Source: Bacteroidales bacterium (GTDB taxonomy: Bacteria; Bacteroidota; Bacteroidia; Bacteroidales; G963667975). Taken from it: a DNA stretch of 64,000 nt. Below, piece by piece: positions 2,805-3,044 of the stretch (position 1 is its first letter; each line of letters begins with the position of its first letter). The notes under the pieces were generated by a model that was not told where the DNA came from, did not search any database, and saw nothing but the letters and a program-made list of their open reading frames with translations. A program made the position numbers and the translations under genes. Location: positions 1,182,760-1,246,759 of the forward strand of contig OY764079.1 in NCBI GenBank assembly GCA_963667975.1. Reading direction: 5' to 3'.

Positions 2805-2930
2805 ATAACAAGCGGTTTAGCACAAGATGGGGTGTTTGCCCGTAGAAAGTTTTGTCGAATTTTGCAAGTTTTGCGCTTGCGCAAACTTTTGTGAAACCCT
2901 GCCTTGCCGCCAAGCCGCCGGACGTCAGAC
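2805..2930 (+). repeat. attC-like recombination site
   Basis: ATAAC box at 2805-2809 lies 40 nt after the stop codon, and a GTCAGAC box lies at 2924-2930. The arms AAGCGGTTTAGCACAAG and CTTGCCGCCAAGCCGC are imperfectly complementary. Confidence 0.5.
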
Positions 2931-3044
2931 TGTCTAAAAACTAAATAATATCCTTCTGAGAATCGAGTATTTGTAATTTAGCTCCATCAGGTATCCAATA
3001 TTATATTTGTAAATTTGAGGTTTTTAGACAAACTGTCGTTATAC
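2925..3044 (+). repeat. ORF-less 114-bp mini-cassette / attC-like element, copy 1
   Basis: Terminal inverted repeat CAGACTGTCTAAAAAC ... GTTTTTAGACAAACTGTCG, ending in GTTATAC at 3038-3044. It differs at only 3 positions from the copy at 8827-8940. No ORF is present. Confidence 0.55.
3002..3017 (+). promoter_or_regulatory. Two adjacent Bacteroidota -7 promoter boxes (TATATTTG, TAAATTTG) inside the ORF-less cassette
   Basis: Both octamers fit the TAnnTTTG consensus and point toward the downstream cassettes. No well-spaced TTTG -33 box was found. Confidence 0.35.

Follow-up and report, generated by a model that had tools for sequence, protein, structure and literature searches.

A duplicated 114-bp unit in a Bacteroidales cassette array is probably a miniature element of an attC-targeting IS1182-family insertion sequence

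In large chromosomal integrons, a cassette that lies far from the cassette promoter Pc is usually taken to stay silent until it is shuffled. A stretch of 64,000 nt from a Bacteroidales bacterium (GenBank assembly GCA_963667975.1, contig OY764079.1, positions 1,182,760 to 1,246,759 of the forward strand; hereafter the window, with positions counted from its first letter) carries the tail of a cassette array and, twice within it, a 114-bp unit without an open reading frame (ORF). What is this unit, and what is its relation to the attC sites beside which it lies? A first-pass annotation had taken it for a cassette that carries a mobile promoter. We conclude that it is probably a miniature inverted-repeat transposable element (MITE) of an insertion sequence (IS) of the IS1182 family that targets attC, and that it would be mobilised in trans. 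The two copies and their boundaries are as follows.

2926–3035, + strand: putative MITE copy A, element proper of 110 bp, homologous over its full length to a Bacteroidota family of ~115 bp; the 114-bp unit as first annotated spans 2925–3038
8828–8937, + strand: putative MITE copy B, element proper of 110 bp, with an orthologue in the same flanks in locus L113 (L numbers are our labels); the unit as first annotated spans 8827–8940
2926–2941 (copy A) and 8828–8843 (copy B), + strand: left terminal inverted repeat (TIR), CAGACTGTCTAAAAAC, identical to the left ends of IS1182-family elements in L126, L127, L128 and L130
3020–3035 (copy A, GTTTTTAGACAAACTG) and 8922–8937 (copy B, GTTTTTAGACAGACTG), + strand: right TIR, matching the right ends of the IS elements
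2922–2925 (ACGT) and 3036–3039 (TCGT) at copy A, 8824–8827 and 8938–8941 at copy B, + strand: flanking copies of the target core, as read directly, the left one adjoining the 3' arm of an attC

Direct comparison bore out the duplication, the copies differing by exactly three substitutions (2981 G/A, 2982 C/T and 3031 A/G). The block common to both reads ACG^TCAGAC...CTGTCG^TTA, where the caret marks the junction, and identity extends 2–3 bp into each flank. These are the only two copies of the 114-bp unit in the whole window of 64 kb, and no match arose in dinucleotide shuffles. The unit indeed has no ORF, as stop codons interrupt 6 of 6 frames. Its ends, which had been described as a ~20-bp imperfect inverted repeat, do fold as a stem: the centroid structure of the single-stranded DNA consists of the TIR stem (~20 bp) alone, a plain stem of 20 bp with one or two mismatches. 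The TIRs measure 16–20 bp, and the right ends of the two copies can be written jointly as GTTTTTAGACA(A/G)ACTG. The earlier description has to be corrected in that these ends are the TIRs of an IS1182-family IS.

These TIRs also bound full-length elements in four loci (L126, 1664 bp; L127, 1669 bp; also L128 and L130), again at a junction of this type. These autonomous partners have the ends CGTCAGACTGTCTAAAAAC...GTTTTTAGACA(G/A)ACTG(C/G)CG^TTA.. and left flanks that resemble an attC arm, and their genes match NCBIfam NF033551 ('IS1182 family transposase', positions 2–307 and 334–487) as well as the Pfam domains DUF772 and DDE_Tnp_1_6. A metagenome contig with a related array (L118) carries a third copy of the window subfamily in the context ...CCGAT^CGT...CTGCCG^TTATATGCC, the three members of this subfamily each having a different flanking context. 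The same contig holds, at 2383–2899 on its reverse strand, a 517-bp element with the same ends, placed at an attC 3' end and encoding a 124-aa protein with DUF772; a 513-bp twin is present in L119 (1370–1882), elsewhere in the genome of L113. By their sequence these elements of 513–517 bp (mini-ISs) are deletion derivatives of the IS. The direction of the transposase gene relative to the flanks is the same in all full-length and mini elements, and a perfect 4-bp repeat NCGT flanks all four full-length ISs (GCGT once, CCGT three times) and one of the two mini-ISs. Since its TIRs, its position at attC and its polarity are common to the unit and to these transposase-encoding 1.66-kb elements, the unit is best read as a MITE. 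The match to NF033551 is found in the TIR-sharing partners and the unit itself has no transposase ORF; it is a derivative or satellite of the IS1182 family and not a member IS.

The position at attC can be seen in detail in the window itself. Window positions 1 to ~10300 are the tail end of an array in which small, mutually unrelated genes all point the same way; they encode a radical SAM protein, two DUF4760 proteins, a DUF3157-like secreted protein, an FRG protein, a WapI-like immunity protein and a Fic/DUF4172 protein; ordinary chromosomal genes follow downstream. Between the array genes lie attC-like hairpins that start ..TAAC and end ...AAAC^GTTAGC. The array extends past the left window edge, and a Pfam scan of the 18 ORFs tested between 94 and 22025 revealed no integrase. 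Each copy of the unit begins directly after the 3' arm of such a hairpin (2804–2924; 8702–8826) and is followed directly by GTTATAC (copy A) or GTTACCG (copy B), in agreement with the earlier placement of the unit between two cassette junction boxes. The two interrupted sites are listed below.

2804–2924, + strand: attC of the upstream DUF4760 cassette, split by copy A from its R' box GTTATAC (3038–3044); its R'' box is CATAAC (2804–2809) and the hairpin is weak (z = 0.44)
8702–8826, + strand: attC of the upstream cassette, split by copy B from its R' box GTTACCG (8940–8946); recognised by its fold and by its identity to Pedobacter sites

After in silico deletion of the unit together with one CG, the site at 8702–8826 reached z = -4.66 and folded like the intact neighbouring attC (7882–8016), with a stem at the R box, a bulge of 4 nt and a further, long stem. 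Uninterrupted attCs 91–95% identical to window 8702–8826 are found in Pedobacter glucosidilyticus and P. puniceum, where they read ...GCAAAACGTTAG and end ...GCTGCAAAACGTTAG (in the longer reading, ...GGGTAGCTGCAAAACGTTAG...); they can effectively be regarded as the empty site. It follows from these sites and from the restored fold that the unit interrupts the ACGT in the crossover core AAC^GTT. The chromosome of a Bacteroidales metagenome-assembled genome (MAG), L113, is 95.4% identical to window 8706–12483 and has copy B in place, in the same orientation. It should be added that the 125-bp attC at 8702–8826, matched at 91–95% in L009 (3772–3897, 4582–4705 and 6451–6585) and L045 (6394–6517), is conserved across orders, from the Bacteroidales of the window to the two Pedobacter species of the Sphingobacteriales, in the manner of Vibrio cholerae repeats.

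The relation to attC is a property of a whole family. A pattern scan with CTGTCTAAAAAC-N65-95-GTTTTTAGACA, using one genome per species, returned at least 117 loci. Among the matches listed, the Bacteroidota account for 53 elements of 104–129 bp in at least 27 genomes, with near-invariant TIRs and with ends of the form CG-N-CA(G/A)NCTGTCTAAAAAC; the hosts include Pedobacter, Flavobacterium, Aquimarina, Chitinophaga, Saccharicrinis, Carboxylicivirga, Dokdonia and many MAGs. The 31 distinct members of 114–116 bp are homologous along their length (nhmmer scores of 47–93 bits on one strand versus 20–41 on the other) and have in common the interior blocks CTGAGAATTG.ATATTTG and AAGATAGGTATCCGAATA, and the 12-bp TIR core is invariant in 24 aligned members. 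Across 41 unique contexts the flank consensus is ...GC.AA(A/C)^CGT-element-NCG^TTA(G/T)..G(C)AAT, the downstream flank having T at +1 in 38 and T at +2 in all 41. Nearly all copies have CGT on either side, and the 4-bp NCGT match is observed at 24 of 40 sites, where 16 are expected. The upstream 150 nt joined to the downstream 10 nt fold significantly better than shuffles at 20 of 38 sites, and an explicit partner arm, 107–116 nt away and preceded by TAAC, was located at about 17. A strict folding criterion recovers an attC context at 12 of the 38; because the R box is too short for minimum-free-energy folding, we relied instead on z-scores, partner-arm searches and the flank consensus. Taken together, consensus, upstream hairpins and partner arms tie the family to the 3' core of attC-type sites. 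An element-free palindromic 'pre-site' (CGTCAGNCTGNCG) was present in none of 118 loci, the unit had no match among PLSDB plasmids, and no long TIR pairs that would mark a parent IS were seen in the Bacteroidota loci among the matches listed, the parent being reached through L118 and protein searches.

Could the unit be, as first annotated, an ORF-less integron cassette that is moved by the integron integrase (IntI) and re-activates distal cassettes through its promoter? Like such a cassette it lies between two G^TT junctions in an array and has no ORF, and its boundaries fall exactly at ...CG^T and ...CG^TTA (junctions ...ACG^TCAG and ...TCG^TTA). Both window copies have the same non-matching flanks, ACG^T...TCG^TTA, as if a block T...G had been copied; a genuine ORF-less cassette of 135 bp adjoins copy A; and TAnnTTTG boxes, discussed below, are enriched on the sense strand across the family. 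However, a cassette ends in its own attC, whereas the unit ends in transposon TIRs and lacks an attC built like the local ones (R''-TAAC, 4-nt bulge, long L stem). Its left junction would give an R' box GTCAGAC, which lacks the conserved GTT, and the same ends bound the transposase-encoding IS1182-family elements. G^TT boundaries are also produced by insertion into the core ACGT, and with respect to the array the interior is found both ways round, against the orientation-specific insertion by IntI. We therefore regard a cassette as improbable: what stands of the original proposal is a mobile, ORF-less element tied to attC junctions, and what finds no support is its status as an integron cassette.

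The distribution of TIR-related ends bears on the same point. MITEs with ends such as GAGCCTGTCTAAAAAC and with TTA/TAA duplications lie outside any attC in other phyla, namely in Clostridia/Eubacteriales, Nitrospirota, Patescibacteria, Treponema and Bathyarchaeia-like MAGs (L011, L016, L018, L020, L025–L029, L014, L026, L012 and others), with dozens of copies in some genomes. The common core end CTGTCTAAAAAC suggests a very broad TIR superfamily. Since ends of the same type bound MITEs outside integrons, the repeat is to be seen as a transposase end and not as an attC.

Several observations weigh against a MITE mobilised by an attC-targeting IS. In the window subfamily the 4-bp flanks match at 0 of 3 independent sites (ACGT/TCGT twice, TCGT/CCGT once); the boundaries of the unit coincide exactly with IntI crossover points (G^T...G^TT); and the identical non-matching flanks would fit a copying of the block by IntI. 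The full-length ISs that were retrieved carry frameshifted transposase genes, and the window has no intact copy. With no intI among the ORFs scanned in the window (94 to 22025), moreover, 'integron' denotes attC sites and cassette organisation only. There is no detectable similarity between the interior of the MITE and that of the IS, the common part being the 20-bp ends only; an origin by simple internal deletion of the IS was rejected on this ground, which makes the unit a satellite that has the TIRs in common with the IS. Finally, the interior can face either way with respect to the ends and to attC, a pattern not expected from simple transposition.

A wider reading that joins transposon and integron seems to us possible, though rather doubtful. 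It holds that a third, undescribed class of attC-specific elements (a DDE IS1182-type IS with its mini and MITE forms) sits on the IntI crossover point, and that the MITE has been co-opted by the integron. The fixed polarity would then possibly be set by a single asymmetric TIR base pair, and the hairpin could fold out of single-stranded attC, with IntI still using the site or moving the unit in the manner of a cassette. Such movement by IntI would explain the identical, non-duplicated flanks of the window copies, and the interior could act as a portable promoter for distal cassettes, possibly an invertible one.

The orientation of the interior deserves closer attention. Within the 114–116 bp class, the window-like orientation is seen in 6 of 31 distinct sequences (the window subfamily, L049, L021b and L095) and the inverse in the other 25; the window-like group is not monophyletic, L095 being 75% identical to the inverse-type L017. 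The TIRs of this class are asymmetric at one position, reading CAG-A-CTG at both ends on the cassette-sense strand, which leaves an A-A mismatch in the stem, and this base has the same polarity relative to attC in all elements of 114–116 bp and in the ISs. In a second class, of 105 bp, the TIRs are perfectly symmetric, and both orientations stand beside paralogous flanks in one Flavobacteriales MAG (L005 versus L060). Three explanations are possible: TIR position 4 sets the orientation of insertion, and lineages switch through two point changes with a symmetric intermediate; template switching between the perfect 12-bp repeats inverts the interior; or a recombinase flips it.

The last of these would make the unit an inverton, in which the ~77-bp interior between the perfect 12-bp repeats CTGTCTAAAAAC/GTTTTTAGACAG is flipped and the direction of an internal promoter is switched. 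It would account for both orientations under a constant polarity of the outer asymmetric TIR base, for the scattered occurrence of the window-like form, and for the near-identical 105-bp copies in opposite orientation within one MAG. No recombinase gene is associated with the elements, however, and 77 bp is very short for synapsis. In the 105-bp class the symmetric TIRs allow insertion either way, which explains the pattern; in the 114–116 bp class it could also result from two point changes at TIR position 4 or from a rare inversion mediated by the repeats. The orthologous copies in the window and in L113, in addition, share one orientation. We consider an inverton very unlikely.

Another candidate is a gene for a small structured RNA, or a cis-regulatory RNA, within the array. 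The long closing stem, the conserved blocks of the interior and the constant length (~115 nt) might recall such an RNA. With 24 members, however, RNAalifold found the TIR stem only, with compensatory changes in 0 of 18 pairs and no interior structure, Rfam gave no match at the gathering threshold or at E<=1, and the interior is used in both orientations. A structured RNA, of all explanations the one to which we attach the least credence, was rejected on the stem-only fold, the lack of covariation and the lack of an Rfam match.

Whether the unit could act as a promoter is a separate question. The boxes on which this proposal had been based are present in the window.

3002–3009 (TATATTTG) and 3010–3017 (TAAATTTG) in copy A, 8904–8911 and 8912–8919 in copy B, + strand: tandem TAnnTTTG boxes, specific to the window subfamily and not conserved beyond it

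These two back-to-back boxes of the Bacteroidota -7 type face the downstream cassettes, as had been stated, and when the unit is shuffled by mononucleotides a pair of them appears in only 0.3% of cases. No -33 TTTG is found ~19–21 bp upstream of them, the nearest standing at 2970–2973, 28 nt away, and a sigma-70-type promoter scan of the unit gave no hit. We also counted boxes in 22 representative subfamilies, each turned to cassette direction according to the fixed polarity of its ends, with interior shuffles as the control. TAnnTTTG occurs 10 times on the sense strand and twice on the antisense strand, about 1.4 being expected per strand, and 0 of 2000 shuffles reached 10. The ten sense boxes are not independent events, because six of them represent a single conserved box of common origin, TATCTTTG (five subfamilies have it at position 50, and one of 126 bp at 61); the subfamilies with inverted interior (window, L021b) have different sense boxes, at positions 80–88. 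The enrichment fits selection for an outward promoter and does not amount to proof. As to the cargo, the Fic/DUF4172 gene 3' of copy B has a TATATTTG box of its own at 9036–9043, ~20 nt before the likely ATG (about 9064), and in L118 the same Fic cassette, with 99.5% identity, has no unit upstream. The idea of a promoter for distal cargo thus finds support in the family-wide sense enrichment, and loses some in the non-conserved window boxes, the missing -33 TTTG and the box that Fic already possesses; a role as 'mobile promoter' is plausible. The first 8 nt of the Fic cassette after G^TTA differ between L118 and the window (TTAGTCAG versus TTACCGCC), which suggests an exchange right at the crossover site.

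Under the preferred reading as a MITE, an IS1182-type DDE transposase would bind the TIRs of the unit in trans and insert it into the ACGT palindrome of the crossover core (AAC^GTT) that lies at the attC 3' end, in one orientation and usually with duplication of (N)CGT. The attC stem would then be set 110 bp from its R' box, and recombination by IntI at this junction would be impaired or altered. Where the element is transcribed, read-through RNA would gain a long hairpin with a 20-bp stem, and AT-rich DNA with Bacteroidota -7-like boxes would be placed in front of the next cassette.

To our knowledge, only two kinds of mobile elements are known to home on attC, the group IIC-attC introns and the IS1111-attC group. 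Our full-text literature searches returned no earlier description of a MITE or an IS1182-family element that targets attC. IS1272 of Staphylococcus, a member of the IS1182 family, is reported to target inverted-repeat or stem-loop structures (PMC5678879), and targeting of attC by the transposase is plausible since an IS of the same family selects stem-loop targets. The partners of the unit agree with that family in encoding NF033551 / DUF772 + DDE_Tnp_1_6, in their TIRs of ~16–20 bp and in that attC is a stem-loop. They differ in the mode of insertion: IS1272 accepts hairpins of many sequences, 'replaces' its target and makes no target duplication, whereas the unit occupies one defined position (ACGT in AAC^GTT), keeps the hairpin arms, has a fixed orientation and usually duplicates (N)CGT.

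The IS1111-attC group (ISPa21, ISPst6, ISKpn4) inserts into integron attC sites in one orientation (PMC11187229, PMC3001079). Its members possess a seekRNA-guided DEDD transposase and subterminal repeats; as with the group IIC-attC introns, they lie near the attC 5' end and antisense to the cassettes (PMC3001079, PMC11187229). The unit and its partners, in contrast, are of the DDE IS1182 type, occupy the 3' crossover core, have the transposase gene in sense and have abundant MITE derivatives. The attC-specific group IIC-attC introns can block read-through from Pc and drive the next cassette through an internal outward promoter, Pout (PMC3001079), a functional analogue of the re-activation of distal cargo proposed in the first-pass annotation. 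They are retroelements, however, that enter the bottom strand near the attC 5' side, and the promoter of the unit is a predicted one.

In size and build the unit also recalls the Correia elements of Neisseria, which are ORF-less, multicopy elements of ~100–150 bp bounded by TIRs; they can give rise to promoters, and their co-transcription yields RNA hairpins. Unlike the unit, they duplicate TA, are scattered in intergenic DNA and show no attC specificity; we know of no autonomous partner for them.

If the reading as a MITE of an attC-targeting IS is true, a DDE family with abundant 115-bp derivatives could lock or re-wire cassette junctions, and local promoters could be supplied across a whole phylum. 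Precise, orientation-specific targeting of structured DNA by an IS1182-type transposase would be of mechanistic interest. In practical terms, these units will confuse the annotation of attC sites and cassettes in Bacteroidota, and their 20-bp ends provide a simple marker for finding attC clusters.

Some further features of the window and its relatives should be recorded. A group II intron RNA lies at 3826–4640 on the + strand, in the attC region after the cassette at 3168–3818, with Rfam matches to RF01999 (D1–D4, 102 bits) and RF00029 (domain V/VI, 63 bits) at 4000–4117 and 4540–4615. It has no reverse-transcriptase ORF between its domains and is on the cassette-sense strand, whereas the published group IIC-attC introns are antisense. 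Two more features link the array to a distant part of the window.

3039–3173, directly 3' of copy A, with a second copy at 51203–51337, 3' of the IS remnant, + strand: ORF-less mini-cassette of 135 bp with its own short attC (self-BLAST 3017–3191 versus 51181–51355, 95%)
51096–51202, + strand: right-end remnant, 107 bp, of an IS1182-family IS, with the right TIR GTTTTTAGACAAACTA at 51184–51199, ending ...ACG^TTATGC and 87.5% identical to the right end of the 517-bp mini-IS of L118

The attC of the mini-cassette reads ATAAC GTCAAAAT...ATTTTTGAC G^TTAGTC, and its second copy implies a second attC cluster near 51.2 kb, distant from the main array. An IS5-family transposase gene (DUF4096 + DDE_Tnp_1) at 49401–50225 adjoins this cluster; the IS5-family IS was rejected as a partner of the unit, its ends being unrelated.

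Among the IS1182-type relatives, L129 (2380–2437, 1131–1149, 4083–4101) represents a variant subfamily with altered ends (GTTTTTAGACAGACTCCCG) that abuts ...CCG^TT junctions and in which the left TIR is split by about 20 extra bases. The mini-ISs encode the N-terminal DUF772 domain only (89–124 aa), with the stop codon inside the right TIR, and the best 120 database relatives of the mini-IS protein are all 72–154 aa long, some of them on megabase contigs. The truncated, DUF772-only form appears to be abundant, and might regulate or inhibit transposition.

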